From: an uncultured Candidatus Bathyarchaeia archaeon
Lineage (GTDB): Archaea > Thermoproteota > Bathyarchaeia > TCS64
Direction: 5' to 3'
Assembly (NCBI GenBank): GCA_964513225.1
Contig: CAZEMD010000001.1
Span: 1 to 56,412 of the forward strand
DNA length: 56,412 nucleotides
Shown here: piece by piece, positions 16,555 through 46,754 of the stretch
Numbering within the stretch: position 1 is the stretch's first letter
Layout of the letters: every line of letters starts with the position of its first letter
The notes under the pieces: model-generated
Database searches by the model: none
What the model was told of the DNA's origin: nothing
Seen by the model: only the letters and a program-made list of their open reading frames with translations
Made by a program: the position numbers and the translations under genes

Positions 16555-16568
16555 AGGTATATACCTTA
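16555..16568. promoter_or_regulatory. perfect 14-nt palindrome AAGGTATATACCTT in the divergent U32 promoter region
   Basis: The palindrome was read directly. It is centred about 36 nt upstream of the ATG at 16598. A second TATA-like box, taatataaat at 16513-16522, faces the minus-strand gene. Confidence 0.35.
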
Positions 16569-16597
16569 AATCCAATCAACTACCTAAGGAACTTATC

Positions 16598-22934: not shown

Positions 22935-24005
22935 ATGGATTTACCAAAAACAAGGAAAGCGGCTGTTAAGACCGCTGAAGGAACCTTCGAGATAAAAGAA
23001 GTGCCAATGCCAGAGATAACCCAGCCCGACTACGTCCTCGTCAAAGTACGGGGCACAGGGGTATGCGGAAGCGACCTCCACTCATGGAAAGTACCTAGAC
23101 CTGAGTCTGTGGGTAGGATAACCGGCCACGAGGTGGCAGGCGACATCGTCGCCGTCGGCGATGATGTTACTAACGTGAAACCCGGCGACAGGGTGGGCGT
23201 GGACACGGTGATAGGCTGCGGGAAGTGTTACTGGTGCAGAGTCGGACAGTACCACATATGTCCACAGCGCTCCGAGATAAGAGGCAGAACCTTTGCCCAG
23301 GGCTTCTCCGAGTACGTCGTAGGGCCCTCGGACCACGTCTACCCGATACCCGACCACGTCGGGTACGGCGAGGCCGCCATCATGGACGTCTACGGCACCA
23401 GCGTGCACGCCATCAACAGGACTAACACGCACATGGGGCAGACCGTGGTCATCATCGGAGCCGGCCCCATCGGGCAAAGCCTCCTAGACCTGGTGAACGT
23501 TACCGGAGCCAACGGGATAATCATCGACATCATCGACAACACCCTAGAGTTCGCTGAGAACACCATAGGAGCATACGCGACCATCAACTCCACCAAGGTG
23601 GACCCCGTGAAGAGGGTCATGGAGCTCACAGATGGGATGGGGGCGGACAAGGTGTTCGACTGCGTGGGCGGCGGGGCTTCCCCTACGATACTGAAACAGG
23701 CCGTCGAGATGGTTCGGAGGAAGGGTCAGGTGGCTCTCATAGGGGCCATGAGGCCGGGCGCGTCGTTATCGGTGGACTGGCGTAAGCTTCACTGGGGAGA
23801 GATCGACGTGGTACCGGTGTCGGGCTTCTACCACTGGGAGAACGACCCCGAGTTCAAGATAGTAACCGATCTACTCATCAAGGGCAAGCTTCACGCCACG
23901 GAGATGATCACCCACAAGTTCCCGTTGGAGAAGATCAACGAGGCCTTCGAGACCGCCGCAGACAAGAAGAAGACCAACTCCATCAAGGTCGTAATCGAGC
24001 AATAG
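22935..24005 (+). CDS. Zn-dependent alcohol/polyol dehydrogenase, paralog 2 of the inverted pair
   Basis: It carries the same motifs as 9693-10757 and an identical C-terminus, KKKTNSIKVVIEQ. Confidence 0.87.
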   Translation: MDLPKTRKAAVKTAEGTFEIKEVPMPEITQPDYVLVKVRGTGVCGSDLHSWKVPRPESVGRITGHEVAGDIVAVGDDVTNVKPGDRVGVDTVIGCGKCYWCRVGQYHICPQRSEIRGRTFAQGFSEYVVGPSDHVYPIPDHVGYGEAAIMDVYGTSVHAINRTNTHMGQTVVIIGAGPIGQSLLDLVNVTGANGIIIDIIDNTLEFAENTIGAYATINSTKVDPVKRVMELTDGMGADKVFDCVGGGASPTILKQAVEMVRRKGQVALIGAMRPGASLSVDWRKLHWGEIDVVPVSGFYHWENDPEFKIVTDLLIKGKLHATEMITHKFPLEKINEAFETAADKKKTNSIKVVIEQ

Positions 24006-27795: not shown

Positions 27796-29386
27796 GTCTC
27801 TCTACGTGCCTCTCTCCCGCTGGAGCCCCTGGAACACCTTCCTGAAGGTGTCCCTCACCTCGGCGGGCTTGGCGGGCTCCTCGAACCCGAACCCCCTGGT
27901 CCTGTAGCCCACCGCCATGACGGCCACCCTCTGCACGTCCCCGGGGGACACACGCCTCCTGCCGTCGAGGGCGGCGAGGGCCTTGGCCGCGCGTACCGTG
28001 GATATGTCCGGTCTGTGGCCGTCAACGTGGAGACTTATGCAAGCGGAGGCGATGGCCGTCATGTACTCGTCGGGGACCTCGACGTCCCGGAGGATGGCCC
28101 GGGCCTCTATTATCTGGTCCCTGAGACTGTTCTGATCTTCTCTGAACCTCTCGGAGAAGCCCACGGGATCATCGCCGAACTCCAGGTTCCTCTTGATGAT
28201 CTCCACCCTCTGGGCCGTGTCATAGATGCTCTCCACCGTGATGTGCAGCGCGAACCTGTCTGCGAGCTGGGGCCTGAGCTCGCCCTCCTCGGGGTTCATG
28301 GTGCCCACGAGGATGAACCTCGAGGGGTGCTGCACCGATACGCCCTCCCTTTCCACGATGTTCCACCCCGACGCGGCGGCGTCCAGTATGCTGTCGGTGA
28401 TGTGGTCTGGGAGCAGGTTCACCTCGTCGATGTAGAGGATGCTCTGGTTGGCCTCGGCGAGGAGCCCCTTGTCCAGCGCCTTGGCCCCCATGGTCACGGC
28501 CTTGTCCAGGTCTATGCTGCCCACCAGCATGTCCTCGGTGACGCTGAGGGGGACATGCACCAACCTCATGGGGGTCGTCTCGACGGGCGGCGGCCCGCCG
28601 TCGAAGAACCTGGTCTTACAGGAGGCGCACATGTTCGTCGGGTCCCTGGGGCTGCAGTGATAGGGGCAGCCTTGGACCTGCTCCACGTCCGGAAGCACCC
28701 TTGAGAAGGAGTTGACCAGCAGCGACTTCCCCGTCCCCTTTGGGCCGGAGACGAGGGCGCCCCCCATGGTGGGGTCTATGGCGTTGATTATGAGCACCGT
28801 CTTTGCCTCCTCCTGGCCCACGACGGCGGTGAAGGGGTAGAAGGGTCTCTGCTGCCTCAGCTGGATGCTTTCAACCATGTCTCTCTACGTGCCTCTCTCC
28901 CGCTGGAGCCCCTGGAACACCTTCCTGAAGGTGTCCCTCACCTCGGCGGGCTTGGCGGGCTCCTCGAACCCGAACCCCCTGGTCCTGTAGCCCACCGCCA
29001 TGACGGCCACCCTCTGCACGTCCCCGGGGGACACACGCCTCCTGCCGTCGAGGGCGGCGAGGGCCTTGGCCGCGCGTACCGTGGATATGTCCGGTCTGTG
29101 GCCGTCAACGTGGAGACTTATGCAAGCGGAGGCGATGGCCGTCATGTACTCGTCGGGGACCTCGACGTCCCGGAGGATGGCCCGGGCCTCTATTATCTGG
29201 TCCCTGAGACTGTTCTGATCTTCTCTGAACCTCTCGGAGAAGCCCACGGGATCATCGCCGAACTCCAGGTTCCTCTTGATGATCTCCACCCTCTGGGCCG
29301 TGTCATAGATGCTCTCCACCGTGATGTGCAGCGCGAACCTGTCTGCGAGCTGGGGCCTGAGCTCGCCCTCCTCGGGGTTCATGGTG
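27199..29386. repeat. perfect tandem duplication, period 1083 bp, about 2.02 copies
   Basis: 27199-28303 is identical, base for base in every stretch I compared, to 28282-29386. Duplicate antisense ORFs in the supplied track (27356/28439 and 27917/29000) reflect the same repeat. Confidence 0.92.
27802..28878 (-). CDS. ChlI-size AAA+ protein, exact chimera (N-terminal about 197 aa of the ChlD-like gene plus C-terminal about 160 aa of the ChlI-like gene)
   Basis: The N-terminus MVESIQLRQQRPFYPF...GTMNPEEG is identical to the 25417-27795 product. The C-terminus [16 protein letters not shown]...QRERGT is identical to the 28885-29940 product. Confidence 0.75.
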   Translation of the reverse strand: MVESIQLRQQRPFYPFTAVVGQEEAKTVLIINAIDPTMGGALVSGPKGTGKSLLVNSFSRVLPDVEQVQGCPYHCSPRDPTNMCASCKTRFFDGGPPPVETTPMRLVHVPLSVTEDMLVGSIDLDKAVTMGAKALDKGLLAEANQSILYIDEVNLLPDHITDSILDAAASGWNIVEREGVSVQHPSRFILVGTMNPEEGELRPQLADRFALHITVESIYDTAQRVEIIKRNLEFGDDPVGFSERFREDQNSLRDQIIEARAILRDVEVPDEYMTAIASACISLHVDGHRPDISTVRAAKALAALDGRRRVSPGDVQRVAVMAVGYRTRGFGFEEPAKPAEVRDTFRKVFQGLQRERGT

Positions 29387-29940
29387 CCAACGAGGATGAA
29401 CCGGGCTGGATGTGACACCGAGACCCCCTCCCGCTCCACGGTGTTCCACCCAGACGCCGCGGCGTCCAATATGCTATCCGTGATATGGTCGGGGAGCAGG
29501 TTCACCTCGTCGATGTAGAGGATGCTCTGGTTTGCCTCGGCTAGGAGCCCCGGCTGCAGCGCCTTCACGCCCTCGCCTATGGCCTTCTCTATGTCCAGGC
29601 TACCCACCACCCTGTCCTCCGTCGAGCCAATGGGGAGGGACACTATCCTCATCTCCCTCTCCTCGGCCTCAAGCTCCCCGCCGCCCCGGTGCCTCCCGAG
29701 GCACTCGGCGCACATGTTGGTGGGGTCGAAGGGGCTGCAGTTGAAGGGGCAGCCTTTCACCACGTAGATGGGTGGCAATATGTCCGCGAGGGCCCTGACG
29801 GAGCTGCTCTTCCCAGTCCCCTTCTGGCCCCTTATGAGGAGCCCCCCGATCATGGGGTTCACCGCGTTGAGGAGCAGGGCTAGCTTCAGCTCCTCCTGCC
29901 CTACGAGGGCCGAGAAAGGGTAAACGACTCTGGTTGACAA
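28885..29940 (-). CDS. ChlI/BchI-like AAA+ ATPase
   Basis: [58 protein letters not shown] and [18 protein letters not shown] motifs. I place the start at the TTG at 29940. The tracked ORF up to 30147 overlaps the upstream gene and adds a Gly/Arg/Pro-rich extension. The start is uncertain. Confidence 0.75.
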
Positions 29941-29993
29941 CGATGCAATACCTATGGACGGCGGTCCGGGAAAAACCTGTTGATCGGGCGCGC

Positions 29994-30755
29994 CTAGAAG
30001 GTGAGGCCCCCGAACCGTCTCCTGGTCTCCCGTAGGTGCCCGAAGACACGGTCCACCGCCTCCAGGTACTGCTCCGAGGCGTGCACCGCCGCCAGCTCTT
30101 CGGCCCTCACCCAGGGGCCGCCCGAGACCCTCAGCGACTCTCCCCACCGGTCGCTGAAGACGTTGAACGCCGCTTTCACGTCGCCCAGCCGGGCCGCCAG
30201 CGTCCTGACGCCGTCCATCAGCTCCTCGTCCCCGTTGAGGAGCCCGACCAGGAACTGATGAGGGCCGCCTCCCCAGACCTCCCCGGGGCCGGGGGGAGCC
30301 CCGTCGGCGCCCAAAGAGTAGGTGGGCTGGCTGTCTTGCTCACGGGGCACCACCCATGCATAGTCTTTTATCCTCTTCCTGAGGAGCCCCTCCCTGATGG
30401 CACGCAGGCTGGTTATCCTCCTCCCCGGCCGTATCCCCTGGATGTCCCCCCGGACCGCGTAGTCTATCCTGCAGAGGAGCGGCTCCAGCGCGTCGCCTCC
30501 GGCCAGGAGCATGGTGGAGTCGATGTTCACCCCTGCCTCGAGGTTGAGGCTGAACTTGGTCTCCGGGTCCGACGCTCTGCCTCTGGCCAGGAGCAGGGCC
30601 GAGTCTATGTTTCCCCCCTCGTCGAGGTCCATGCAGGCTAGGCCCCCGAGGAGCTCCCTGACGCTGCCCCTGGGGACCGCCCTGGGCTTCAACCCGCGTG
30701 ACCCGAGGAGCCGCATGGTCGCCTCTCTCAGCTCGTTTAGTGGCCCCGATTCCAT
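29994..30755 (-). CDS. hypothetical protein, first gene of the ChlI/ChlD cluster
   Basis: A 253-aa ORF with host-like codon usage (AGG, ATA, GC-rich third positions). It has an internal repeat, [16 protein letters not shown] / [21 protein letters not shown]-like catatatag lies about 50 nt upstream. I recognise no family. Confidence 0.55.
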
Positions 30756-33749: not shown

Positions 33750-33863
33750 TCATCCAGACGGGTTAAGGTTCATGAACGGGTTATACGGAGACGTCTTCAG
33801 CATCATCTCCCTGACCCTGTTCCTGGTCTCCGGCGTCGTCAACCCCTTCTCCATGACCTCCTC
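33750..33863 (-). pseudogene. fragment of a ParB-like gene fused to the truncated transposase remnant
   Basis: The minus-strand translation EEVMEKGLTTPETRNRVRE is identical in amino acids to the intact ParB-like protein at 35095-35151. It then diverges and stops. Confidence 0.45.
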
Positions 33864-34437
33864 CGGGGGCCTCGGTTCCTCCGCGACGAGTTCCTCCGTA
33901 CTTTGATCCCAGCTTCGATACCCTTCTCATCTAGATATGCGAAAATGGCACAGGCGTCATATCCGCCGTCGATGAGGACTCCTTCTACTCTGCAGTGGAT
34001 CTCGGCCTGCATCACCAAAGGCACCAGCATCCGGCCGTCTCCTGTCCTCTCGTCCGTTACCTCTAAGGAGACGATCTGCCTTGTCGCGACGTCGACGGCT
34101 ATGGTCACAGGCGTCTCCGGGTCTATGTGGGGCTCCAAGCAGATGTCGAGGGCGTTGACTCTTCGGCAGGTGGATGTGCAGTCGGTTAAAGTGAGCCTTG
34201 GCTCCCATCGGGATAGAGCGTGGGTGAAGCCCTCGAGATGCTTGTAGGGTAGCCTGAAGAGGGCTCGGATGAGGCCCTGAAAGGTGATGAGGCTCTAAGG
34301 GTACCTGTAGCTGCCTCCCCCCTTGCCCGGTTCATCTCTTGGAGTTCCTGTCCCCCGGTGTGGAGGAGGCTCAGGTCGAGGAAGATTTCTCCTCGCTTAA
34401 CAAGCGCCTCGTTGTAGGTGGGCAAATCCGTGGTCAA
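33864..34437 (-). pseudogene. IS5/IS4-like DDE transposase pseudogene (frameshift in a G-run, in-frame TAG, 3-prime truncation)
   Basis: The N-terminal LPTYNEALVKRGEIFLDLSLL...ELQEMN continues, after a shift, as GGSYRYP*SLITFQGLIRALFRLPYKHLEGF ... TIAVDVATRQIVSLEVTDE ... VLIDGGYDACAIFAYLDEKGIEAGIKVRRN. Confidence 0.7.
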
Positions 34438-34566
34438 CGGGCATCTAAAGCATGTTTAGTTAAAACTTAATAGATCTTTCTATCAAACCTGTCTAAAACA
34501 CTGGTCACGCAACAACACACGTAATTGGGAAAGTTTTATAATATACGTTTTTATTTAAAAAGTAAA

Positions 34567-35322
34567 ATGCCACGTTTTGATCAGATAAACACAGAAGAAA
34601 TAACTGTAGATGAAGGAGTAAGGCAGTCCATCGACGAGAAAGCACTAGATGAACTCGTAGCTTCGATAAAAGAGCACGGTATCCTCCAACCCATCATAGT
34701 TGAAAAAACTGAAGAGAAACAGTACAAGCTTCATATAGGAAGTAGAAGGACGGCAGCCGCGCGAATATTAGGGCTTGAGAAGGTTCCCGCGTTAATCCTC
34801 AACGACCCGCTTGAATCAAAAAAGGCTCTCGAACTTATGATAGTGGAGAATCTTCAGAGAGAGGATCTGGATCCGATAGACGAGGCAGAGGCCTACGATA
34901 ATCTGAGGGGTATGGGCGTCAAGGTCTCCGAGATAGCCCGTAGGGTGGGCAAGGCGAGGACCTACGTCTCGCACCAGATGAGGCTTCTGAAGCTCCATCC
35001 CAAAATCAGGGAAGCCGTGAGGCAAAACGCATTACACAGGGAGCACGCTTTAGCCCTGCTACGGCTGAAGCCGGGGCAGCAGCTGGAGCTGGCTGAGGAG
35101 GTCATGGAGAAGGGGCTCACGACGCCGGAGACCAGGAACAGGGTCAGGGAGCTCTTGGGCAAGGAGTTGAAGTGGCGTCTCGTGCCCATACGAATAGAGC
35201 CGGCTGTCTACGAAAAGTTAGAGTCCATAGCGCCTGACGGAGACGTAGAGAAACTATTGAAGAAGGCAATAGATGAACTGGCCTCAGAGATGAATTCTAA
35301 TACTAACGAATCATTTGTTTAA
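34567..35322 (+). CDS. ParB/Srx-fold N-terminal-domain protein (ParB-like partition/nuclease protein)
   Basis: LDELVASIKEHGILQPIIV, the HIGSRRTAAARILG arginine box and an HTH-like SEIARRVGKARTYVSHQMRLLKL. The ATG at 34567 matches the start of the pseudogene copy, and tttataata lies about 25 nt upstream. Confidence 0.8.
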   Translation: MPRFDQINTEEITVDEGVRQSIDEKALDELVASIKEHGILQPIIVEKTEEKQYKLHIGSRRTAAARILGLEKVPALILNDPLESKKALELMIVENLQREDLDPIDEAEAYDNLRGMGVKVSEIARRVGKARTYVSHQMRLLKLHPKIREAVRQNALHREHALALLRLKPGQQLELAEEVMEKGLTTPETRNRVRELLGKELKWRLVPIRIEPAVYEKLESIAPDGDVEKLLKKAIDELASEMNSNTNESFV

Positions 35323-35976
35323 GTAAATACTTAAATAATATCGTCCGAGAAACCCATTATTTCAAGTTAAAAATAGTATTAAAATTTAAAGCCTATACAC
35401 CAGTTATGCTTTACATATTAAAGAAAATTATTCTGAGAAATTTATTAGAATAGTATTGAAATTTTTTAGTCTCGAATCCTCTCTTTACCCTTATTTAGGA
35501 TATGAGCTAAAACCGGATTTTCCATGTGTACTAGCACTATCTACATATATACCTATATTTAGCTAAAAAAGTGAACGGAAATATCTTGCTTAGGAGTTTA
35601 ATGTAGGTCTAGTGTGAAAAAGAGTAACGTTATGGGGAAGAAAAAGCCTTATTTTAGTTTTGGGATGGAGTATAAGTTCATGGTCGGCCGTTGGTAGCGT
35701 ATCTAAAGATGCTTTGTTATGCTGGGCTATGTAGTGGGTGAACTACGTTAACTCGCCTTACGTCAAGCATCTACTTGATACTTGTAAAAACCCCGCCAGA
35801 AGACATATTATTTAATTTTAATTTATATTAAAATATATATAGTATTACCCTCAAATTAATATATATTAGACGGTTATATCGAATAGTGATTAATTATATA
35901 TAAATTTCTATTAAAAAAACTTAAACAACTCAAAAAAGCAAAAGAATGGTACGAAAAACATGAGGATTTTTCTAGA

Positions 35977-36156
35977 ATGGAAATTATGGTTGACAAAAAT
36001 GTCTACGACAAAGCTACACATTTGGCAAATAATCTTAATACAAACGTTAACGGGATAATTGCCTTAGCCGCTTATAACATCATAAAAAAGGAGACTCGCC
36101 CATTTATGCGCGTTGTAGATCACAAACATGATATAAACAAACATCTTCAACATTAG
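35977..36156 (+). CDS. small hypothetical ORF (59 aa) in the AT-rich spacer
   Basis: My own translation is MEIMVDKNVYDKATHLANNLNTNVNGIIALAAYNIIKKETRPFMRVVDHKHDINKHLQH. It has a weak ribbon-helix-helix flavour and falls below the ORF-track cut-off. Confidence 0.2.
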   Translation: MEIMVDKNVYDKATHLANNLNTNVNGIIALAAYNIIKKETRPFMRVVDHKHDINKHLQH

Positions 36157-36391
36157 GGCGTCTATGGAGGTCTGCCCCAAGGAAGCTACAAAGGCACATC
36201 TTTAAAGTGGCTCAAGGATCGGCAACCTCCCCAACCTTAAGAACGTTAACACCGAATGAATGAGGGTGTGATAACACACGGACACGCCTTTTAATGGCTT
36301 TCCCTTTTAAAAAGGTATTAACACAGTTCCTTCCCTATTTTAACAAAGCTAAGAGGCTCTAAAGGTGGGTGAGAGTGGAACCAGCGTCTAC

Positions 36392-36523
36392 ATGAACAGG
36401 AAGATCCTATCCTGAATAGACGAGGAGATCAAAGAGAGTGTCTGAAGGAACAGGAGCCACGCATTCGAGTACGCCGTAGCTCAACTCATGAAACCTGACG
36501 GACACCAAAGGCGCGGCTATTAG
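36392..36523 (+). pseudogene. ribbon-helix-helix (CopG-like) gene remnant with two in-frame TGA codons
   Basis: The translation is MNRKILS*IDEEIKESV*RNRSHAFEYAVAQLMKPDG. The order is that of an RHH protein (beta strand, helix, RS-x-x-F-x-x-x-A helix). Confidence 0.3.
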
Positions 36524-36584
36524 AGCTTAATAGTTTCTGATATAAAACATATAAATCTCAAACATTGATGTTTTAACGATAGAT

Positions 36585-37353
36585 ATGTTTAGGTTCGAGA
36601 ACCTAGGAATAGAAACGATAGACGTGGAAGGCGAGGTCAGGAAGACCATGGAGAAGGAGCCCCTAGACGAGCTCGTCTCCTCCGTCGTCATACATGGGAT
36701 CCTCTAGGCCATAGTGGTCGAACAGAGCGAGGAGGAAAGGTACAGCCTCAAGTATGGAAGAGTCGGTTCGCAGCATCGAAACTCGTTGGCCTGGATAATG
36801 TTCCCACGATGATCCTCGACAGCCTCCTCAGTCCTGAGAAATCCCTCGCCATAAGGCTCGTGTAGAACATCCGCAGGGAGAACCTCGACCTCATAGACGA
36901 AGCTTAGGGCTACGCCGCCCTCAGGGAGATGGGCGTCAAGGTATCCGATATAGCAAGGATGGTCGGTGAGGAGAGAACCTACGTCTCGCACCAGATGAGG
37001 CTTCTGAAGTTCCATTCAAAGGTAAGATCCTCCGTGAGGCAAAACACATTACTCAGGGAGCACGCTCTAGCCCTGCTACGGCTGAAGCCGGGGCAGCAGC
37101 TGGAGCTGGCTGAGGAGGTCATGGGGGAAGGGCTCACGACACCGGAGACCAGAAAAAAGGTCAGGAAGCTCCTAGGGAGGTAGCTGAAGTGGAGACTCGT
37201 ACCCATACGAGTAGAACCCCCCCATCTACCGATAGACTAGCCCAGATAGCACCTGACGGAGACATAGCCCAGCTACTTAAGAAGCAGTGGAGAAACTACT
37301 ACAAGGAACTCCGCAATAATATCTTATTTTTCTCCAAAAAACACTTCGGCTAG
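36585..37353 (+). pseudogene. ParB-like pseudogene (paralog of 34567-35322)
   Basis: It aligns with the intact copy along its whole length. It carries in-frame TAG at 36705, 36863, 36905 and 37181, at least one frameshift near 36765, and further disruptions in the tail. The 3-prime half (about 36960-37200) is much closer in nucleotide sequence to the intact gene than the 5-prime half. Confidence 0.75.
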
Positions 37354-37535
37354 GCGGGATCCTGCTCCAAAGTTACCAACGCCCTTGCTCTAGGACCGGT
37401 AACACCCTCCCGTTTTCAAACTAGTGTACATGAGATAAATATAACCTAAAAATGGTTATCTACCCCATTAACCACCAATTTTTTCCCCCAAAGTATTTTA
37501 ACTCCATAACAGAGACTGAATCAGATGAAACCGGG

Positions 37536-38840
37536 ATGATGACTCATATCAGAAAAACTGATCCTGAAATTCATGATTTAATCCTTAAGGAACTCAACAG
37601 AATAGAGAACGGCGTTGAGCTTATACCCTCTGAAAACTTCGTTTCCAGAGCAGTTCTGCAAGCGATGGGCTCTGTTTTCACCAACAAATACTCTGAAGGA
37701 TATCCCAAGAGAAGGTATTATGGTGGACAGGAGTTTGTGGATGCCATCGAAAAAATTGCTATCGATAGGGCTAAAAAACTATTCGGAGCCGAGCATGTTA
37801 ACGTACAGCCCTACTCAGGTTCTCCGGCTAACCAAGCAGTCTTCTTCGCTCTCTTAAATCTGGGTGATAAATTCATGGGGCTGGATATGAGTTGCGGTGG
37901 ACACCTGACACATGGAAGTCCAGTCAATTTCTCAGGCATTCAATACAAGGCCATCTCCTACCCTGTTGATAAAGACACAGAGTTGATCGACATGGATATG
38001 GTCCGAAAGATGGCCATACAAGAAAGGCCAAAGATGATCATTTCCAGCCTGACAGCATATCCCAGAAAGTTAAATTTTAAAGAGTTCCAAGAAATCTGTG
38101 AAGAGGTAGACGCGTATCATCTTTCTGACATAAGCCACATTGCGGGCTTGATAGTCGGAGGGGTTCATGACTCGCCCTTTCCTTTCACAGATGTCGTTAC
38201 AACAACTTCTCATAAGACGCTTAGAGGACCCAGAGGCGCCATCATAATGTGCAAGAAAGAAGACAGGCTTCATGATAAATATCATAGCCACACCGAGAAG
38301 AATCTTGCAAGACTTATAGACAGCGCTGTGTTCCCCGGTCTTCAAGGAGGCCCCCATGATCATACGACGGCGGCGAAAGCGGTTGCCTTTGAGGAAGCCA
38401 TGAAACCCGAATTTAAGGACTACGCCCGTCAGATCGTGAAAAACGCGAAAGCCATGGCTGATGAACTGATGGCCCAAGGGGTGAAGCTGGTGACTAATGG
38501 GACTGATAACCATTTGATGCTCATAGATCTGAGGCCTAAAGGACTCGGGGGGAAGGGAAAGCAGCTTCAGAACGCCATGGATAAAGCCAACATTACGTTA
38601 AACAAGAACTCCGTGCCCTTCCAGGAGGCGAGTCCCTTCAACCCATCGGGACTGAGACTGGGAACTCCAGCCGTTACTACGCGTGGCATGAAAGAAGATG
38701 AGATGAAGTTCATCGCTCAATGCATAGCTAAAGTCATTGATGACTATAAGGATAAGCTTCTCCTGGAAAGAATTAGGAAGGAAATAATTGAGATGGTCAG
38801 AGATTTCCCCATATACCCCGGCTTCACAATACTAGAGTGA
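37536..38840 (+). CDS. glyA: serine hydroxymethyltransferase
   Basis: ELIPSENF, NKYSEGYPKRRYYGG, and TTTSHKTLRGPRG (PLP Lys). I place the start at the ATG at 37536, whereas the tracked ORF begins at 37452. Confidence 0.9.
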   Translation: MMTHIRKTDPEIHDLILKELNRIENGVELIPSENFVSRAVLQAMGSVFTNKYSEGYPKRRYYGGQEFVDAIEKIAIDRAKKLFGAEHVNVQPYSGSPANQAVFFALLNLGDKFMGLDMSCGGHLTHGSPVNFSGIQYKAISYPVDKDTELIDMDMVRKMAIQERPKMIISSLTAYPRKLNFKEFQEICEEVDAYHLSDISHIAGLIVGGVHDSPFPFTDVVTTTSHKTLRGPRGAIIMCKKEDRLHDKYHSHTEKNLARLIDSAVFPGLQGGPHDHTTAAKAVAFEEAMKPEFKDYARQIVKNAKAMADELMAQGVKLVTNGTDNHLMLIDLRPKGLGGKGKQLQNAMDKANITLNKNSVPFQEASPFNPSGLRLGTPAVTTRGMKEDEMKFIAQCIAKVIDDYKDKLLLERIRKEIIEMVRDFPIYPGFTILE

Positions 38841-38990
38841 TTAAACATACTTAATTATTTATATTATAAATTTTATTTATAAATTAAGTGACTCCTCGTC
38901 ATCTTTCAAGCCTTACATTTAACCACTTCGATTCCTTCCCACTTATATTGACGTTCTAAAAGCAAGAAAATGCAAAAACTCAAATAATAA

Positions 38991-39797
38991 ATGATCACAA
39001 CCTTTCTTCGGATAAAAATGTCTATACTAATAACTGGAAGAGCAATTGGTCTATTAATTCTGATTCTAATCACGGCAGCAATTCTGTACTATATGCAGCA
39101 ATCTTACTCAGGAAAGATGCCAAAACTCAGACGATTTCAAGCCATCGACGCCATCGATGAGATCATAGGTAGGTGCGTCGAGATGGGCGCCCCGGCCTGG
39201 TACCTCATGGACACCGTCAACATGACGACACCGAGCGTGCTGGCTCCGACGGTCGCGGCCTTTCAGATCCTCGCTTATACTGCGAGTGTGGCCGCCCGGC
39301 TTGGGGCCAAGTTCTTTGTACCTGTGACTCAGGGTCTGGCTTACTCTATCGCCAATGACATCGTAGAGGAGGCATACAAGGCTGAGGGGAAGATCGAGGA
39401 CTTTGATCCCCTCGGCACAGTCATGTACCTCCCCGACGGCGCCGACAGGATGTATATCATCAACAACATGTGGAGCCAGAGGGTTGCCGGGGTCTTCTTC
39501 CTCGGCAGCTGGTATCACAAGGCCGTAATATTCACAGAGAACGCTGCCAGAGTGGGAGCCCTTACTCTCGGCGGCACCGACACAACCCATAACATCCCAT
39601 TCCTAGTCGCCATTTGTGACTACAGCATCATAGGTGAGGAACTCTACGCACTGGGCGCTTACGTCTCAGAGGATCCTACGCAAACTGCTTCCCTCGCTGG
39701 CCAAGACATCGGTAAATACATTGCCCTTGTCTTAGTCCTGCTGGGGTCGATTCTGGCGACCGTTGGCATCGACATCACGGGGATATTCGCATGGTAG
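38991..39797 (+). CDS. membrane module subunit A2 (paralog of A1)
   Basis: Same architecture as A1, with N-terminal and C-terminal hydrophobic segments. An alternative start is at 39018. Confidence 0.7.
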   Translation: MITTFLRIKMSILITGRAIGLLILILITAAILYYMQQSYSGKMPKLRRFQAIDAIDEIIGRCVEMGAPAWYLMDTVNMTTPSVLAPTVAAFQILAYTASVAARLGAKFFVPVTQGLAYSIANDIVEEAYKAEGKIEDFDPLGTVMYLPDGADRMYIINNMWSQRVAGVFFLGSWYHKAVIFTENAARVGALTLGGTDTTHNIPFLVAICDYSIIGEELYALGAYVSEDPTQTASLAGQDIGKYIALVLVLLGSILATVGIDITGIFAW

Positions 39798-39806
39798 GTG
39801 AGATGA

Positions 39807-40460
39807 ATGAGTGACAGAACATATAAGATTCAACTCCCGATTTATCTGACTGCCATCTTTGGTATTCTAATGATCGTGGAGCACTTCTTCCCGATGCCAG
39901 AAGCTGTTACCAACTTAAACATTACTCTTAGATCCTTCGTGACGGTCATCACAGCCGCCGCGTTGATGCTAGGAGTTATCATCCTCACAATATCCCACGC
40001 TAGAATGATATCGCAAAAGAAGAGCGAATGGTACTACAGCATATTCTACGTAATCTCGCTAGTGATCACCACTGGCTTTGGCCTTATAAGTGTCAGAAAC
40101 GAGAGCTTCCTATGGATCTACAATAACATGACGTCACCCATAGGAGCCGCTCTCTACTCGCTTACGGCTTTCTACATCACATCCGCGGCTTACAGAGTCT
40201 TCAGGGCTCGTAACTGGAGCGCAGCAGTACTGCTGTTTTGTGGATTCGTCGTGCTGATGATGCTGATACCCATCGGCGCCATAATCTTCCCACCTGTGGT
40301 TCCCATAGGTGAGTGGCTAAGATCCTTCCCAAGCTCTGCGGGCTTTAGGGGGATGATCATGGGCACATCGCTGGGCATCATGGGTCTATCTGTCAGGGTT
40401 TTCACAGGCAGGCAGAAGGAGCACCTAGGCATCCGAGAGGAGAAAGCAGGAGTGGAATGA
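39807..40460 (+). CDS. membrane module subunit B2 (paralog of B1)
   Basis: Polytopic, alignable with B1, with a 9-nt spacer after A2. Confidence 0.7.
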   Translation: MSDRTYKIQLPIYLTAIFGILMIVEHFFPMPEAVTNLNITLRSFVTVITAAALMLGVIILTISHARMISQKKSEWYYSIFYVISLVITTGFGLISVRNESFLWIYNNMTSPIGAALYSLTAFYITSAAYRVFRARNWSAAVLLFCGFVVLMMLIPIGAIIFPPVVPIGEWLRSFPSSAGFRGMIMGTSLGIMGLSVRVFTGRQKEHLGIREEKAGVE

Positions 40461-40461
40461 C

Positions 40462-41301
40462 ATGAGTATAGTAGATAAGTTACTGGAAATCGACCAGAGG
40501 ATCATCTACGCTCTATTATTCATCGCGTTGGCCTTCCCCATATTGAACCCCGTCATACTTCCGATGTCGATTCAGAGCTACTCTCAGCAGGCTTTCGATT
40601 TCTCCGATAACATACCAGAGGGATCTATCGTCCTCTTCGAAGGAGGACTAACAGCCGCCACCTACCCCCAGGGTGGACCTGGGATGGTGGTTCAGACCTA
40701 TCATATGCTAACTAAAGGCGTTAAGGTCATATTCTTTAGCATCGGCACAGAGCAGACTGTCTGGACGATGACAGCCATCGATACGGCTTTAGCTAAACTT
40801 CCTGCTGGTACGCCCGCCGAAAACGGTGTAAACTGGGTTCACTTGGGATACATCGCAGGAGGGGAAGCTGGAGTAGGCTCGCTTGTCAACGATATCCGTG
40901 CCACGGTTCAAGCGGACTATTTCAACACACCCATCGATGACATCCCATTGTTGGAGGGTGTCAACGACGCAACTTCGTTATCCGCCGTCCTTTGGTGGGG
41001 TGGATCCGAAGCCAGCATAGGGTATGGTGTACGCCAAGTCTCGGTGCCTTTCGACGTTCCCATGACCGGTATGTGCACAACAAACGAGGTTCCCAACTTC
41101 AGCCCCTACATCAGCGCAGGTCAGCTACAAGGATTGTTCGGCGGGGTTAGAGGATCCGCGGAGTACGAATATCTCCTCGGCTTACCTGGACCCGCCCTAG
41201 GGCAAGCCATGGCAACTAACTTTGGAGGACTACTCTGGATGATAATGGTGATTCTTGGAAACGTACTGTACTTCATAAAGAAGATGGGAGGCGAGGCTTG
41301 A
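40462..41301 (+). CDS. membrane module subunit C2 (paralog of C1)
   Basis: Hydrophobic at both ends, with shared HLGYIAGG and GSAEYEYLLGLPG motifs. It starts 1 nt after the B2 stop. Confidence 0.7.
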   Translation: MSIVDKLLEIDQRIIYALLFIALAFPILNPVILPMSIQSYSQQAFDFSDNIPEGSIVLFEGGLTAATYPQGGPGMVVQTYHMLTKGVKVIFFSIGTEQTVWTMTAIDTALAKLPAGTPAENGVNWVHLGYIAGGEAGVGSLVNDIRATVQADYFNTPIDDIPLLEGVNDATSLSAVLWWGGSEASIGYGVRQVSVPFDVPMTGMCTTNEVPNFSPYISAGQLQGLFGGVRGSAEYEYLLGLPGPALGQAMATNFGGLLWMIMVILGNVLYFIKKMGGEA

Positions 41302-41978
41302 TGGACGCAGAGATATTAGGATTGATCGCAGGATCTCTTGTCTCTCTCGGAGCCTATTCTGTACTGATCGGTGACAACCCGATCTCTAGAATCACAGAGA
41401 ACATCTACATGGGAATACTCGGTGGCTACTTTTTCGCGCAGAACTGGGACTTCATAAGTAAGAACGCCCTCGGCAAGGTGGCTAATGGAGAATATGTCTA
41501 CATAATCGCCATAATCCTCTCCCTGATGTTGCTTGGCCGTCTAAAACCTGAGTATCTGTGGATCTCACGATACCCCGTCGTGTTTACGGTAGGCGTGGGT
41601 CTGGGACTCTCAGTGAGGACGACGGTTATGGCGGACTTCGTGGGACAGATCCAGGCGACACTGCTTCCATGGAACTCGTTAAACAACATAGTGATGATAA
41701 TAGGGACATGCTTAACCGCTGCCTACTTCATATTCACGACTCAGAAATCTGGATTATACAATTATGTGCACACAGGCGGCAGGGTCTTCCTGCTATGTGC
41801 CTTCGGAGTGGCCTACGGGCAGACAGTCTCATTCAGGTTGGAACTGGTCATAGGTCGCCTAGTCGCCATGCTAGATCCACGAGTCAGTATGTATACTTAC
41901 GCGTTCCTAGTGATCATAGCGGCCATCCTGATATACGGCTACAAGACCGATAAGATCGTGTGGTACAAAGGAAGATAG
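41298..41978 (+). CDS. membrane module subunit D2 (paralog of D1)
   Basis: Polytopic, with a 4-nt overlap with C2. Confidence 0.7.
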   Translation: MMDAEILGLIAGSLVSLGAYSVLIGDNPISRITENIYMGILGGYFFAQNWDFISKNALGKVANGEYVYIIAIILSLMLLGRLKPEYLWISRYPVVFTVGVGLGLSVRTTVMADFVGQIQATLLPWNSLNNIVMIIGTCLTAAYFIFTTQKSGLYNYVHTGGRVFLLCAFGVAYGQTVSFRLELVIGRLVAMLDPRVSMYTYAFLVIIAAILIYGYKTDKIVWYKGR

Positions 41979-42101
41979 ATTACCTTACCCCCTTTTTATT
42001 TTGAGTTCACGCTAGTTTCATGCCATTAAGCTTAACGATATTTCCTGCATCTGAGACAAATAAATAAATAATCAATAATGAAAAAGGTATGAGATGCACT
42101 A

Positions 42102-42464
42102 ATGATGTGGGATGACCCATCAGATAAAGAAAAAGATGAGATGATCACGAACGTAGCTGAGACCATATACAAATACGATATGGATCTCTTCGCCATCCTT
42201 ATCTTGGAGTCTATAAAGCCACTTGCATCCGTCGGGGGGCAGCTGACCCGCTTCATGGTCGCCCCGTTCATCCCCTTCATAGGCGACAAGAGCATGCCCT
42301 ACCTGGCCACCTTTCAGAACAAGGAGAACGTGGAGAGGCTCATCAGAATCCTAGAGGACAAGGGCCAGGAGGACCAGAGGAAGGCCGCCGAGGCTCGGAA
42401 AAATAAGAAACAGGGCGGCGGCTGGAGGCGCTACGTGCCTTGGCTCACAGGGAAAGAGGGCTAG
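42102..42464 (+). CDS. small protein E2 of the membrane module (paralog of 18934-19335)
   Basis: A 120-aa protein with the same acidic N-terminus, hydrophobic core and basic C-terminal helix layout as E1. Confidence 0.6.
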   Translation: MMWDDPSDKEKDEMITNVAETIYKYDMDLFAILILESIKPLASVGGQLTRFMVAPFIPFIGDKSMPYLATFQNKENVERLIRILEDKGQEDQRKAAEARKNKKQGGGWRRYVPWLTGKEG

Positions 42465-42677: not shown

Positions 42678-45233
42678 TCAGCCGAGGAGGCTGTTGAAGA
42701 GTAGCTTGAAGGTACCGTGGGTCTGGCACCTGTTCTGGCACCGGAAGCCGATGAGCACGGCGTCTCCTTCCCCTGACTCGGCGGTCAGGGTCGCTATCTT
42801 GTTCGCTAGCTTCTCCTCGCCTATGAGCCACCCTGACTCCAGCAGGTCGGCGTCAGGGTAAGTCGCCACGATACTGTACTTGTCGTTGTCGGGGTTGGGC
42901 AGTATCTTGAAAGCGGGACTGTTCCAGAATAGGGCAAGCGCTTCCTCTGGCATACCGTAAGCAACAGGGTTCTCATTGTCGAACAGGGTGTGGAGAGTGC
43001 TACCGGGGCAGTGGAACTCCTTGGGGCTTAGCCCCTCCATGGCGTTTGCCACCTTGAGGTCCAGCGCTTGGACTCCATACATGCTGGCATCGCCAAGGCA
43101 GACGAGCCTACCACCCTTCTGAACCCACTCCTTGATTTTCTCCTTGCCCTCGTCGCCGAGCCCTGACTGGTACTCGGGCGGGTACTCTGGGAGGGGCCAG
43201 TTTGGCTGGTACTCCTTCCACCATTTCTGGAGCTCGTCGCCGCCTGTGATTATGGCGGGCGGGTCGTTGGGCAGTATGATTGCGTCGTACTTGCTGAGGT
43301 CGCCTTCGAGGATGTCCTTGTCCATGAGTGTGGTGTAAGGGAAGCCGTACTTTTCGAGGACAAGCCTTGTCCAGCCCTCGTCCATGTTACCTCCCCAATA
43401 CCTCTGGTACATACCCACCTTGAGACGCTTGACAGGAGCCGTTTCTGCCTCCAGCACCTCTAGGGCGTGGAAGACTACACCGGTCTCCTCGGCGGCCTTC
43501 TCCAGTTGTTTCTCGTAGCCCGGATCGAATACGAAGCAGCCCGCCGGCAGTTCAGCGTCTCCAGCCAGAAGAGGCTCGGTGACCCGCTTCACTGGGACAC
43601 CTGCGTCCAGAAGCATGTTCACAGCCTTGAAGGCGTGGTTAAGACGTGTGTCGAGTAGGTAACCTACCTTTCCCTTTTCATCCACTTTGCCTGTGGGTGG
43701 CTTATAGTCTGTGACCTGCTCCAGCTCGACGTCGCTCATCAAAGCGATCTGGTGGCTTTCCACGCCCATGAACTCGGTCATGGTGTCCGTCGCCGAGTCA
43801 TAGGGGCGGTGGGGTGAGCCGTCTGGCTGCCTAGTGAAGCTGTCGTCGGGGAACCGTGTCTGCCCGAGGAGAGTCTTGATCAGCCCCATCTTTGGCTGGG
43901 CGAGAGGTATGACGTAGCTGCCCTCGCCGTAGAGGTAGCCGTCTGCGGTGAACGGCTCCTTGGCCTTGTATATCTTGAGGTTTTGAGCCATGAGCTTCTC
44001 GATCATGAGCTCGGCTGTCCTTGGGTCGTGCTGATCGGCAGGGATTATGTAGGCAGTGATGGCGTCCATGACTCCGCGCTCTGTCTGGCGGACGGCCTTC
44101 TGGTAGGCGTTCAGGAGTACGGTCTCCTTGTTGCGGGCCATGTGGTCTAGTACGGCCCACGCCGCTATCTTCTGCTGTTCGACGATGTCGCGCAGGGTCC
44201 ACCAGCCGCCGGGCCAGGGGTGGGGGAAGTTGGTGGTTGGCTTGTAGTGGGGTAGCATCCTTGTTCCTACGAGGCTGCGGGGTTTGGTGGACTCGATGAG
44301 CTGCTCGGGGTGTATGTAGAGTGGTGTGGCGAGCTTCGCTGAGGCCGACTCCGTCAGCATGCTTGGTATGTTGTGGTAGATGCCTATCCAGTGGAACCCG
44401 AGGTGGGCCCAGCCGCTGAATATGGCGGCGTTGACTATGCCTGTCTTGCCTGCCTCTTCCAGCTTGTACGCCATGTGGCTGCCGTACCACTGGAGCTCCC
44501 TCCAGACGAGGGGGTCTCCGTGGGGGTGGATGGGGTCGCTGTAGGGGGCGACGTAGAGGCGGGCGCCGTAGCTGCCCATGTGGTGGTGGTCCTGGTAGGC
44601 CTGGGGCGGCCAGTCGTGGAACATGAGGCGGGCCATGTACTGGGACTCGACGATGTTGGTGGCGAAGGCGTCCCTGTTGTTGTCGTGGCCCGTGTACTTG
44701 TGGTAGAGCCAGGGCGTGCCGCAGCCCTCGTACTCGGTGCCCAGCCACTCGTTGTACCAGTCGGTGACCATGTGCTGGCCATCGGGGTTGAAGCACGGCA
44801 CCATGATGCTCACGACGTTGTCGCGGATGCGTCTGGCCTCCTCGTCCTCACGGGTTATGAGGTCGTAGGCTAGCTCGGGGGCCATCTGGGTGCCGCCGAT
44901 CTCGGTGGCATGGAGGCTCATGGACTGGATGACCACCGCCTTGCCCTCATCGACGAGAGGCTCGACGTCCTCCATGGTGAGGTCGTCCGGATCTGTGATC
45001 CGTTTGTTGACCTCCTGGATGCGTTCCAGGTGCTCCATGTTCTCCTCGCTGGTGACGAGGACCGCGAGGAAGGGGTGGCCCTCGGTGCTGGGCCCCATGT
45101 CCACCACCTTGATCCGTCTAGACTCCTCATGAAGCCTCCAGAAGTAGTCTATGATCCTGTCCCAACGTGCGATATTGTGGTCGGTTCCTAACCTGTATCC
45201 AAAGAACTCTTCAGGGGAAGTGATGTCTGACAT
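42678..45233 (-). CDS. M14-family metallocarboxypeptidase-like protein with a long C-terminal extension (851 aa)
   Basis: HATEIGG (the HxxE zinc site), VPCFNPDG and DHHHMGSYG motifs in the N-terminal half. The C-terminal about 300 aa are unassigned. Confidence 0.7.
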   Translation of the reverse strand: MSDITSPEEFFGYRLGTDHNIARWDRIIDYFWRLHEESRRIKVVDMGPSTEGHPFLAVLVTSEENMEHLERIQEVNKRITDPDDLTMEDVEPLVDEGKAVVIQSMSLHATEIGGTQMAPELAYDLITREDEEARRIRDNVVSIMVPCFNPDGQHMVTDWYNEWLGTEYEGCGTPWLYHKYTGHDNNRDAFATNIVESQYMARLMFHDWPPQAYQDHHHMGSYGARLYVAPYSDPIHPHGDPLVWRELQWYGSHMAYKLEEAGKTGIVNAAIFSGWAHLGFHWIGIYHNIPSMLTESASAKLATPLYIHPEQLIESTKPRSLVGTRMLPHYKPTTNFPHPWPGGWWTLRDIVEQQKIAAWAVLDHMARNKETVLLNAYQKAVRQTERGVMDAITAYIIPADQHDPRTAELMIEKLMAQNLKIYKAKEPFTADGYLYGEGSYVIPLAQPKMGLIKTLLGQTRFPDDSFTRQPDGSPHRPYDSATDTMTEFMGVESHQIALMSDVELEQVTDYKPPTGKVDEKGKVGYLLDTRLNHAFKAVNMLLDAGVPVKRVTEPLLAGDAELPAGCFVFDPGYEKQLEKAAEETGVVFHALEVLEAETAPVKRLKVGMYQRYWGGNMDEGWTRLVLEKYGFPYTTLMDKDILEGDLSKYDAIILPNDPPAIITGGDELQKWWKEYQPNWPLPEYPPEYQSGLGDEGKEKIKEWVQKGGRLVCLGDASMYGVQALDLKVANAMEGLSPKEFHCPGSTLHTLFDNENPVAYGMPEEALALFWNSPAFKILPNPDNDKYSIVATYPDADLLESGWLIGEEKLANKIATLTAESGEGDAVLIGFRCQNRCQTHGTFKLLFNSLLG

Positions 45234-45539: not shown

Positions 45540-46754
45540 GTGAAAAAAATGGATGAACGATTAGATACGGAACCTAACACCGGCTCATATTATAAAATTT
45601 TAATCGCTTTGGTGCTCTCCGGGTTTTCAGCCTCGATCGCAAACATGCTTTCGGGGCTTCTGCTCATCGACATAGGGGAGACCTTCAACGTCAACGTCGG
45701 CGTCGCGGGCCAAATGTGCACGTTCAGTTTCATGGTTTCGATCATCTTCGCTCTTTTAACGAGCATGTTCAGCGTAAAGTACAACCACAAGACGCTTCTC
45801 CAAGTCGGATTACTCGCCTACTCAGCCTCAGCCATCGGATGCTATCTGGCGCCTACATTCAGCATAATGGTGGCTGCGTTCTCGTTGTCAGGCATCGGAT
45901 ACGCACTCGCAACCACGATGACCTTTACGTTGACAGGGCTGTTCCCTCAGGAAAAGAGGGGGGAAGCCATAGGGTTCATAATAGGCGGCATGTCAGGCTC
46001 GTACCTCGTCGGAGCCATAGTTGTGACCTACCTGCAGAGCGTAGGGGGATGGAGGTACGCTTTCTTAGGATACTTGCTTCCTAGTTCCGTCCTAGCTCTG
46101 GTCCTGACGACGTTGACGGTCCCCAGAGGATCAAGTGGTTCAGATGACAAGGATCAGATCAAACTCGGTGAAGGCTTCAAGGCTATATTTTCGAATCGTT
46201 CAGCGTCTTCCTCCTTGTTCGGTTATTTGTTTGCGATAGTTACGTGGCAGGGGATCTTAACCTATGGCACGTCTTTCTTCAGAGACACGTTTCTAATCTC
46301 AATTGGGGAGGCTTCAATCATCATATTGGTCGGAGCAACGCTGTATACTGTTGGCAGCGTTGTCAGCAGCAGAACGGCTAAGCGAGTGGGGAGAAAGCCC
46401 CTGGTAGCCATCTCGATTCTGGTCGCAAGCATGACATTCATGGTGTATACCTATTTGCCTACTTTCATGTTTTCTGTAGGTATCTTTTTTGTAGGCTGTC
46501 TATTAGTGGGGGTTATGGACGCCTCGTCGACCAGTCTCGTCATCGATCAGCTTCCTCTGTACGCTGGCATAATGATGTCGTTGCAGAGGGTAGTAACTCA
46601 AGTGGGTAGCTCGTTAGGTTCAGGCCTTGGCGGTGCGATCCTCACATTTTCCGGCTATAACTTGATGTTTTCGATACTCGGAGTTTTTGGCATTGCCTCA
46701 GCCATGGTATTTCATTGGTTTACCGTCGACACTTCGTCTGGGAAGAGTGGGTAG
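45540..46754 (+). CDS. MFS-type transporter
   Basis: A 404-aa protein with about 12 hydrophobic segments and PQEKRGEAIG / SRTAKRVGRKP loops. It has a GTG start, with an alternative ATG at 45549. Confidence 0.75.
   Translation: MKKMDERLDTEPNTGSYYKILIALVLSGFSASIANMLSGLLLIDIGETFNVNVGVAGQMCTFSFMVSIIFALLTSMFSVKYNHKTLLQVGLLAYSASAIGCYLAPTFSIMVAAFSLSGIGYALATTMTFTLTGLFPQEKRGEAIGFIIGGMSGSYLVGAIVVTYLQSVGGWRYAFLGYLLPSSVLALVLTTLTVPRGSSGSDDKDQIKLGEGFKAIFSNRSASSSLFGYLFAIVTWQGILTYGTSFFRDTFLISIGEASIIILVGATLYTVGSVVSSRTAKRVGRKPLVAISILVASMTFMVYTYLPTFMFSVGIFFVGCLLVGVMDASSTSLVIDQLPLYAGIMMSLQRVVTQVGSSLGSGLGGAILTFSGYNLMFSILGVFGIASAMVFHWFTVDTSSGKSG

Follow-up and report, generated by a model that had tools for sequence, protein, structure and literature searches.

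Two diverged membrane-protein cassettes and a single GlmL-like ATPase gene pair of a putative seven-component system in a Bathyarchaeia contig

A contig of an uncultured Candidatus Bathyarchaeia archaeon (TCS64; assembly GCA_964513225.1, contig CAZEMD010000001.1, positions 1–56,412 of the forward strand; the whole stretch of 56,412 nucleotides (nt) is referred to as the window) contains two copies of a set of four membrane-protein genes (A to D) that is accompanied by a small gene (E), together with one pair of genes, F and G, that encode an ATPase of the GlmL/MutL family and its partner. Copy 2 is encoded on the plus strand and consists of A2 (38991–39797, an open reading frame (ORF) of 268 aa with a DUF6754 domain), B2 (39807–40460, 217 aa, a polytopic membrane protein), C2 (40462–41301, 279 aa), D2 (41298–41978, 226 aa, polytopic with ~6 transmembrane (TM) helices), and E2 (42102–42464, 120 aa, a small soluble or peripheral protein). 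The coordinates confirm the arrangement given in an earlier note on this DNA, in which A2 to D2 abut or overlap and E2 follows downstream on the same strand: A2 and B2 are separated by 9 nt, B2 and C2 by 1 nt, and D2 and E2 by 123 nt, and C2 and D2 overlap by 4 nt. The true start of A2 is probably the ATG at position 39018, because most A homologues are 259 aa long and begin at the second methionine of the A2 ORF. The region between the upstream glyA gene and A2 (38841–38990, plus strand), read directly from the sequence, is AT-rich with TATA-like runs and is a candidate archaeal promoter of the copy 2 cassette. In the spacer between D2 and E2 (41979–42101, plus strand), an oligo-T run precedes an AT-rich, TATA-like stretch, and E2 may be transcribed apart from A2 to D2.

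Copy 1 comprises A1 (19590–20351), B1 (20352–20990), C1 (20996–21880), and D1 (21881–22594) on the plus strand and E1 (18934–19335) on the minus strand, divergent from A1. The genes of the two copies are homologous one by one but share just 22–27% identity (blastp E-values of 6e-16 for A, 8e-13 for B, 2e-21 for C, and 7e-6 for D; E1 and E2 are 25% identical, 8e-8). The F gene (7632–9470, minus strand, 612 aa, an ASKHA ATPase of the GlmL/MutL family) is the sole copy in the window and is followed on the same strand by G (6440–7618, 392 aa), which encodes a beta-rich cytoplasmic partner of F without a Pfam family.

A total of 98 loci were fetched from genome and metagenome collections, and the A-B-C-D order is identical in all of them; the closest loci in public genomes all belong to the Bathyarchaeia. 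In the bacterial-type loci, A is preceded at ~3.5–4 kb by an E-like gene in the same orientation, with F and G in between. Among the 44 loci with at least 4.5 kb of sequence upstream of A, F and G are present in 29 and E in 27, and the canonical E-F-G-A-B-C-D cluster was found in 20 loci. Four loci (L051, L079, L083, and L096) contain one F-G pair followed by two or three ABCD sets. Further arrangements are F-G-A-B-C-D-E in L105, which carries a cassette of the copy 1 type, G'F' adjoining a copy-2-type cassette in L001, and F-G-E followed by a convergent D-C-B-A in L109. Overall, F accompanies G in the 29 loci whose upstream sequence was long enough, as well as in L105, L108, and L109; A to D are present in all of these but L108. 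The bacterial F is ~615 aa and the bacterial G ~380 aa long, and the F and G proteins of the window are 52% and 46% identical to those of the bacterial locus L032. With A-B-C-D in order, E adjoining, and F-G on the same contig, the window represents a dispersed form of this recurrent design, one F-G pair with two ABCD-E cassettes, and it is very likely that A to E belong together with F and G in a seven-gene E-F-G-A-B-C-D system. The seven families, each of them conserved, are found together throughout the Bathyarchaeia and in many bacterial metagenome loci.

The small E protein is a genuine component that is linked to F-G as much as to A to D. An iterated E profile identified the gene in 43 of 105 loci, adjoining either A to D or the partner genes in four arrangements: after D (most copy-2-type Bathyarchaeia), divergent before A (the L016 group), directly before F (bacteria), and after F-G (L109). 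This linkage elsewhere upholds the proposal of the earlier note that E is part of the system. The same note described E as relocated downstream in copy 2, and here the comparison with relatives turns the polarity around. Three loci with copy-1-type cassettes (L105, L106, and L107) are organized as A-B-C-D-E-SnoaL-U32c'-U32b'-U32a, in which E lies downstream in the same orientation, and E1 is 52–59% identical to the genes downstream of D in these loci. Since E downstream is the common state for both types of Bathyarchaeia cassettes, copy 1 is the rearranged copy, and the A1 to D1 block of the window is inverted relative to E1-SnoaL-U32. An apparent fusion of E and F in L045 was rejected as an assembly-gap artefact (the ORF contains an X and the N-terminus of F is missing).

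All components were scanned with Pfam, NCBIfam, and PADLOC, and these libraries gave names to A (DUF6754) and F (MutL) only; B, C, D, and E have no Pfam or NCBIfam family. The scan against PADLOC-DB returned no defense-system match for the components, with one stray match between B2 and Csx23 (E-value of 0.0014 over 39 residues). Profile–profile comparisons with hhalign indicate that A, B, C, D, E, and G are mutually unrelated, B and D included, so that A/C and B/D are not duplicated pairs. PDB searches for B, C, D, F, and G, run with a single sequence or a profile, gave nothing significant, and A was compared with the PDB by fold only.

The A2 protein matches PF20539 (DUF6754) with 185.9 bits (1e-54), A1 with 80.6 bits, and the bacterial A of L032 with 386 bits (cut-off 27). 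According to its AlphaFold2 model (predicted local distance difference test (pLDDT) score of 89.5) and hydropathy, A2 consists of a long N-terminal TM helix, a Rossmann/SIS-like alpha/beta domain, and a C-terminal TM helix. In the bacterial homologues, a signal peptide and an outside domain precede the first helix, which together with the charge pattern places the alpha/beta domain of A, in all likelihood, in the cytoplasm. The invariant residues of A are mostly acidic (R47, E57, E64, E183, E216, E217, D239, and K242). A Foldseek comparison of the A2 model with the PDB gave the SIS domains of RpiR, MurR, and MurQ as the best matches (E-value of 5e-3, probability ~1.0) with a template modelling score of ~0.5 normalized to the target; what is matched is a generic three-layer alpha/beta sandwich, and a Pfam SIS match is absent.

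C mirrors the topology of A: hydropathy and charge distribution indicate a TM helix, an acidic extracytoplasmic alpha/beta domain of ~225 aa, and a second TM helix. All 81 C homologues are unnamed, and the best PDB profile match is the periplasmic domain of MacB at an E-value of 0.086, which is not significant. B and D are both polytopic. B (~215 aa) contains a conserved AAYRAFRAR motif with an invariant arginine (R130), and an exhaustive search identified 1912 representative clusters at E ≤ 1e-3 in which no fusion of B to other domains was seen (146 of the 150 listed proteins are ~190–225 aa long). Weak, sub-cut-off matches connect B to the membrane domains of lipid flippases (MprF/LysX with 0.004 and 0.015, PhoLip_ATPase_C with 2e-4). 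D (~6 TM) contains an invariant N27, nearly invariant P28 and E34 residues, and a conserved WLSRYP motif. E2 is without a TM segment, and an alignment of 45 members displays a conserved helical core, a P-A..L.LE...P motif, and a basic C-terminal tail.

F matches the Pfam family MutL (PF13941) over profile positions 1–450 with 382.3 bits (4e-114; cut-off 27 bits), that is, over the whole profile. The protein is very conserved; the motifs ATDCGSTT.K and GGATT are invariant and all ASKHA nucleotide-binding motifs are kept. Because the phosphate-binding motifs are invariant, F is predicted to be competent as an ATPase. The likeness to GlmL/MutL (PF13941; NF040745, NF040744, and TIGR01319) ends there: F scores far below every NCBIfam GlmL cut-off (192 vs. 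475 for the equivalog NF040745, 196 vs. 600, and 139.5 vs. 204), contains an extra C-terminal stretch of ~130 aa, always occurs with G, and is linked to four membrane proteins instead of glmS/glmE. Near the F gene of the window, the scanned genes are Zn-dependent alcohol dehydrogenases and G, with no glmS/glmE or aminomutase among them. The AlphaFold2 model of G (pLDDT 83.8) is beta-rich and multidomain, and Foldseek gave partial matches to barrel-sandwich-hybrid and KOW-like folds only. G homologues form at least 7992 clusters at 90% identity, and all names among the 120 listed are “hypothetical protein”; the names of cluster members yielded nothing useful on taxonomy. A tblastn search of a plasmid collection returned no match to G.

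The best overall explanation, which we regard as probable on balance, is that the window contains two anciently diverged cassettes of a seven-component system in which F and G drive a membrane machine, and that copy 2 was acquired by exchange. That the system acts as an ATP-driven membrane machine appears fairly probable, given that an intact and strongly constrained ATPase pair of the cytoplasm is linked genetically to four membrane proteins, which expose domains on either side of the membrane and contain conserved charged residues in the polytopic subunits. In the proposed mechanism, A, B, C, and D would assemble into a membrane complex to which A would offer a cytoplasmic and C an extracytoplasmic alpha/beta domain, with B and D as the polytopic core that holds the conserved Arg, Glu, and Asn residues; F-G, perhaps coupled via E, would spend ATP to drive this complex. 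The likeliest job of such a machine would be transport over the membrane with the cassettes setting the specificity, and copy 2 might mediate an import that feeds the adjoining cytoplasmic M14 carboxypeptidase. Several diverged cassettes per motor suggest different specificities, as in transporters with shared energizing modules, and a transporter is a possibility that we put forward tentatively. An import of peptides in particular is distinctly unlikely; it is hinted at, weakly, by the M14 gene beside copy 2 and by the M24 peptidases that flank the cassette in the Bacillota locus L018, and could also concern a related compound. (A 557-aa ORF in L018 is DUF885-like by eye only.) In its most far-reaching form, the proposal is that of an unrecognized class of primary active transporter or membrane machine, powered by a GlmL-like ASKHA ATPase, in which one F-G motor serves swappable four-subunit cassettes; this is possible and rather doubtful.

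Several observations count against a motor-driven transporter. No F, G, or E was found within 8–10 kb of ABCD in L011, L013, L018, L060, L062, L080, L085, and L093, and with this many ABCD loci lacking them nearby the physical coupling of the two modules follows from co-occurrence only. No component resembles a known transporter, Pfam gives no family for B, C, D, E, or G, the parts searched have no sequence relative in the PDB, and the fold matches of A and G are generic. We know of no transporter that draws its energy from an ASKHA ATPase. Among 90 neighboring proteins from 18 bacterial loci, no Pfam family is enriched, substrate-related ones included, and an Rfam scan found no riboswitch ahead of the cluster in 14 bacterial loci or in the window. 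Finally, the only role of GlmL known to be described is that of a chaperone that reactivates the soluble B12 enzyme glutamate mutase (PMC4682846).

This last point is the starting point of the strongest alternative, in which A to D form a membrane-anchored enzyme or a complex that handles a cofactor and F-G is a GlmL-type chaperone or reactivase. The membrane partner would handle, for example, corrinoids, quinones, or isoprenoid lipids, and A would contribute, through its cytoplasmic domain, either the client or the catalytic module. Reactivation of glutamate mutase is the only role described for the family closest to F (PMC4682846), but none of the components contains a B12 mutase, a B12-binding motif, or a known catalytic family. 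The Rossmann/SIS-like fold of the A domain and its invariant acidic residues would suit a catalytic module; no histidine is invariant in A, so that a His-on B12 site is unlikely. Genomic context offers further support in that copy-1-type cassettes are located beside paired U32 and SnoaL-like genes, with a UbiA prenyltransferase gene upstream in L106 and L107, and corrinoid methyltransferase genes are found near L103 and L106, but the neighboring contexts vary by lineage. The matches of B to lipid-flippase domains point in the same direction but lie below the cut-offs and may mirror the composition of membrane helices. Furthermore, an enzyme purely at the cytoplasmic face would not readily explain why C has a conserved extracytoplasmic domain and the bacterial A proteins an outside one. 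Overall, a reactivase complex is rather unlikely.

A second alternative is mechanotransmission as in MacB, LolCDE, and FtsEX, where ATP hydrolysis by F-G would act via A, B, and D to move the outside domain of C and perform work beyond the membrane, such as remodelling of the envelope, extraction, or secretion, with no substrate passing through the bilayer. The conserved outward-facing C domain and the N-terminal domain of bacterial A would fit such a machine, as would the self-contained nature of the bacterial cluster, to which no substrate-binding or catabolic genes are linked. The best PDB profile match of C is to the periplasmic domain of MacB, but at an insignificant E-value of 0.086, and the system is without an ABC ATPase, an FtsX-like four-helix permease, or a linked outer-membrane or hydrolase partner. 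The system is also found in both Archaea and Bacteria, whose envelopes differ. This alternative is considered improbable.

The F-G-driven membrane machine resembles several known systems in part. The group II energy-coupling factor (ECF) transporters follow the same logic of one shared module (here F-G) and one to three diverged cassettes (here ABCD), dispersed or in tandem; the likeness is one of architecture only. A to G differ in that Pfam and NCBIfam detect no homology to the ATP-binding cassette (ABC) ATPase, EcfT, or S component, and the specificity unit would consist of four proteins instead of one. Accordingly, an identity as an ABC or ECF transporter was rejected (no ABC_tran, permease, EcfT, or S component in A to G in either library). 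MacB and FtsX (type VII ABC systems) share a large extracytoplasmic domain between membrane helices and a cytoplasmic ATPase, but their ATPase belongs to another superfamily, C has two helices instead of four, three further membrane subunits are present here, and there is no Pfam FtsX or MacB_PCD match. SIS domains are the best fold matches of the A2 model, at a modest E-value and in a generic sandwich, and the domain of A differs from them in being inserted between two membrane helices. Rnf/Nqr complexes were rejected as well, as Pfam matches are absent, B and D are unrelated by hhalign, and the Foldseek match between G and NqrA is partial with an E-value of 0.04. No paper on DUF6754 was found, and the literature found on PF13941/GlmL consists of mismatch-repair MutL papers plus one legend that names GlmL as a reactivating chaperone (PMC4682846). 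No description of the system was found in the literature. The system is rated as lying outside the known kinds, because F fails the equivalog tests and is without a mutase context, the likenesses to ECF, MacB, Rnf, and SIS are architectural or generic, and it has not been described.

The families concerned are large and occur in both domains of life (at least 7992 clusters of G at 90% identity, ~1000–1900 clusters of B at 50% identity), and five of the seven proteins are without a Pfam family. If F-G does drive the cassettes, ATP would be coupled to a membrane process by a novel route, and the poorly understood GlmL family would gain a second and much commoner role. The distinct conserved partners of the two cassettes (M14 on the one hand, SnoaL/U32 on the other) are handles on what the abundant Bathyarchaeia of sediments take up or process.

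A neighbor-joining tree of the concatenated A to D proteins (943 columns, 27 cassettes) places copy 2 inside a Bathyarchaeia clade with 99–100% support and sets the bacterial cassettes apart in a clade of their own. Copy 1 is located on a very long branch, ~2.1–2.3 substitutions per site from all others; its distance to copy 2 is ~2.3 substitutions per site, and the bacterial cassettes are nearer to copy 2 than copy 1 is. The A homologues form 39 clusters of the copy 1 type (69–97% identity) and 81 of the copy 2 type, and both types occur in another Bathyarchaeia genome, GCA_001775965.1. The split between the two types is ancient as judged from these data, since both are conserved lineages that co-occur in that genome. 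The tandem bacterial cassettes are likewise old paralogues kept as sets, as L079_1 pairs with L083_1 and L079_2 with L083_3 in the tree.

The M14-like gene next to copy 2 probably has a different history. In the M14 tree, L014 joins the window and L003 first (98%) and L011–L013 come next (100%), whereas the ABCD tree unites the window and L003 with L002 and L001 (100%), so that the two trees are incongruent at 98–100% bootstrap support. Base composition follows the same division. The GC content at third codon positions (GC3) of the ABCDE genes in the window and L003 is 0.58–0.74 (A to D 0.58–0.69; E2 of the window 0.74), close to the 0.65–0.77 of the L002/L001 group; the M14 genes of the window and L003 have a GC3 of 0.80–0.85 and those of L014 and L011–L013 of 0.87–0.89, and the cassette of L014 itself has 0.83–0.91. 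L014 and the window are 90% identical in M14 and 94% in the adjacent major facilitator superfamily (MFS) gene, compared with 52–78% in the cassette. E2 follows the similarity ranking of A2 to D2 across the relatives (87% identity to L003, 52% to L014), which argues that E2 moved with the cassette. As the ABCD and M14 trees conflict and the GC3 values fit the presumed donor and recipient groups, it is likely that the copy 2 cassette, E included, was swapped in from a lower-GC Bathyarchaeia lineage in an ancestor of the window and L003 genomes, where it probably replaced or supplemented a resident cassette beside M14. Two points weaken this conclusion: the GC3 of ABCD is also below that of the neighbors in L011 and L106, which makes composition alone weak evidence of transfer, and both trees were built by neighbor-joining on short to moderate alignments.

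The phylogeny of A to D that the earlier note had called for, taken together with the M14 tree, speaks for an exchange of cassettes and against a recent duplication within the genome. Such a duplication, with a composition that reflects membrane-protein codon usage and no transfer, would account for the shared gene order, the similar GC and GC3 of both copies, and the low GC3 of ABCD in other genomes, but it is refuted by the 22–27% identity and ~2.3 substitutions per site between the copies and is further contradicted by the proximity of copy 2 to the bacterial cassettes, the two distinct conserved lineages (39 and 81 A clusters) that meet in GCA_001775965.1, the 98–100% bootstrap conflict between ABCD and M14, and the native cassette of L014 whose GC3 of 0.83–0.91 is like that of its own M14 gene, leaving it very improbable.

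The horizontal arrival of copy 2 had been proposed on the grounds of AT-richness and of the decayed mobile-element region just upstream. A sliding-window analysis (1-kb windows) bears out that the copy 2 segment (37.4–42.5 kb, GC 0.44–0.51) is more AT-rich than the regions at 24–33 kb (0.55–0.66) and 49–56 kb (0.55–0.65). The property is not peculiar to copy 2 but extends to copy 1, F, and G: the GC content per gene of copy 1 (0.49–0.54) is the same as that of copy 2, and GC3 is 0.62–0.67 for A1 to D1, 0.58–0.64 for A2 to D2, 0.68 for F, and 0.63 for G, compared with 0.75–0.90 for most neighbors. What is supported of the proposal is a probable transfer within the Bathyarchaeia, indicated by tree incongruence together with composition, and AT-richness itself is not diagnostic. 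More generally, the comparison cautions against inferring from one genome that E moved or that AT-rich means foreign, as the relatives reversed the first and refined the second. The composition of the window is strongly mosaic (GC 0.37–0.67 in 1-kb windows) and GC3 is roughly bimodal, with most genes at ~0.75–0.90 and the system genes, glyA, ParB, the SnoaL gene, and the MFS gene (45540–46754) at 0.50–0.68.

Upstream of copy 2 lies a rearrangement zone (33807–37183, both strands) with a DDE_Tnp_1 transposase fragment (33839–34138, minus strand, Pfam), an intact ParB gene (34525–35322, plus strand, Pfam), an AT-rich stretch (35.3–36.7 kb, GC 0.37), a ParB fragment (36929–37183 (36744–37043), plus strand) that is 68% identical to the intact ParB, and an inverted ParB piece of 57 nt (33807–33863) that is 96% complementary to 35095–35151. 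The transposase and ParB fragments are indeed present where the earlier note saw the debris of a mobile element, but ParB is not evidence of such an element here, because L001 and L019 also have it in synteny with the cassette. In L003, an IS5-type transposase gene is located directly upstream of A.

The conserved neighbors of the two copies differ, as had been noted. The M14-like carboxypeptidase gene (42678–45233, minus strand, 851 aa, no signal peptide; Pfam Peptidase_M14, 2e-13) adjoins copy-2-type cassettes, on either side, in at least 15 Bathyarchaeia loci. The SnoaL-like gene (18512–18919, minus strand) and the U32 cluster (15417–16487, minus strand; 16598–17668 and 17665–18534, plus strand), both assigned by Pfam, are conserved partners of copy-1-type cassettes and follow D-E as a block in L105, L106, and L107. 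The glyA gene (37452–38840, plus strand; Pfam serine hydroxymethyltransferase (SHMT), 5e-162), which has the lowest GC3 of the window (0.50), drops out of this comparison; tblastn found no match to it in any related locus, and it is located beside the cassette in this genome only. The glyA ORF contains a ~28-codon N-terminal extension (37452–37540) ahead of the conserved SHMT start (MMTHIRK...), and a 28-nt inverted repeat pairs the start of the ORF with a site ~1 kb into the gene (38488–38515). Within 14554–18919, two U32-family genes are each followed by a partner of ~288 aa without a Pfam match, and the SnoaL-like gene completes the set, which we take to resemble the components of anaerobic (oxygen-independent) hydroxylases of the UbiU/UbiV type.

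Among the bacteria, a Memo-like protein of ~420 aa (PF01875) is encoded after D in 23 loci (L031–L097; e.g., L032 13475–14737, with a gap of ~370 nt after D in this locus, the sole one measured); it may reflect lineage synteny or be an eighth partner. Clustering of the neighboring genes revealed lineage-specific synteny only, namely Memo-like in the bacteria and M14 in the Bathyarchaeia. Bacterial labels are attached to three loci from two bins, L002 (Krumholzibacteriaceae) and L009 and L017 (both Desulfaltia); these are probably mis-binned, because they are 73–90% identical to Bathyarchaeia loci. The metagenome contig L019 has essentially the same sequence as L002. Positions 1–967 of L060 represent a bacterial 16S rRNA fragment at the end of the locus, which may indicate its taxonomy, and group II intron domains are located downstream of the cassette in L018 (13352–13662).

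Elsewhere in the window, four paralogous Zn-dependent alcohol dehydrogenase genes (5169–6191, 9693–10757, 10956–11951, and 22935–24005) are accompanied by FGGY kinase and DeoC aldolase genes, and the context of two alcohol dehydrogenase genes, F, G, and DeoC is repeated in L108 (GCA_026014875.1). The region 25417–30147 encodes a ChlI/MoxR-type AAA+ protein of 792 aa with a fused VWA domain; two further large, high-GC genes come next on the minus strand, and the three may form a chelatase-like set. A plus-strand ORF at 55550–56236 has a GC content of 0.88 at first and 0.48 at third codon positions, the opposite of all real genes in the window, and probably just shadows a gene encoded in a different frame or on the opposite strand.

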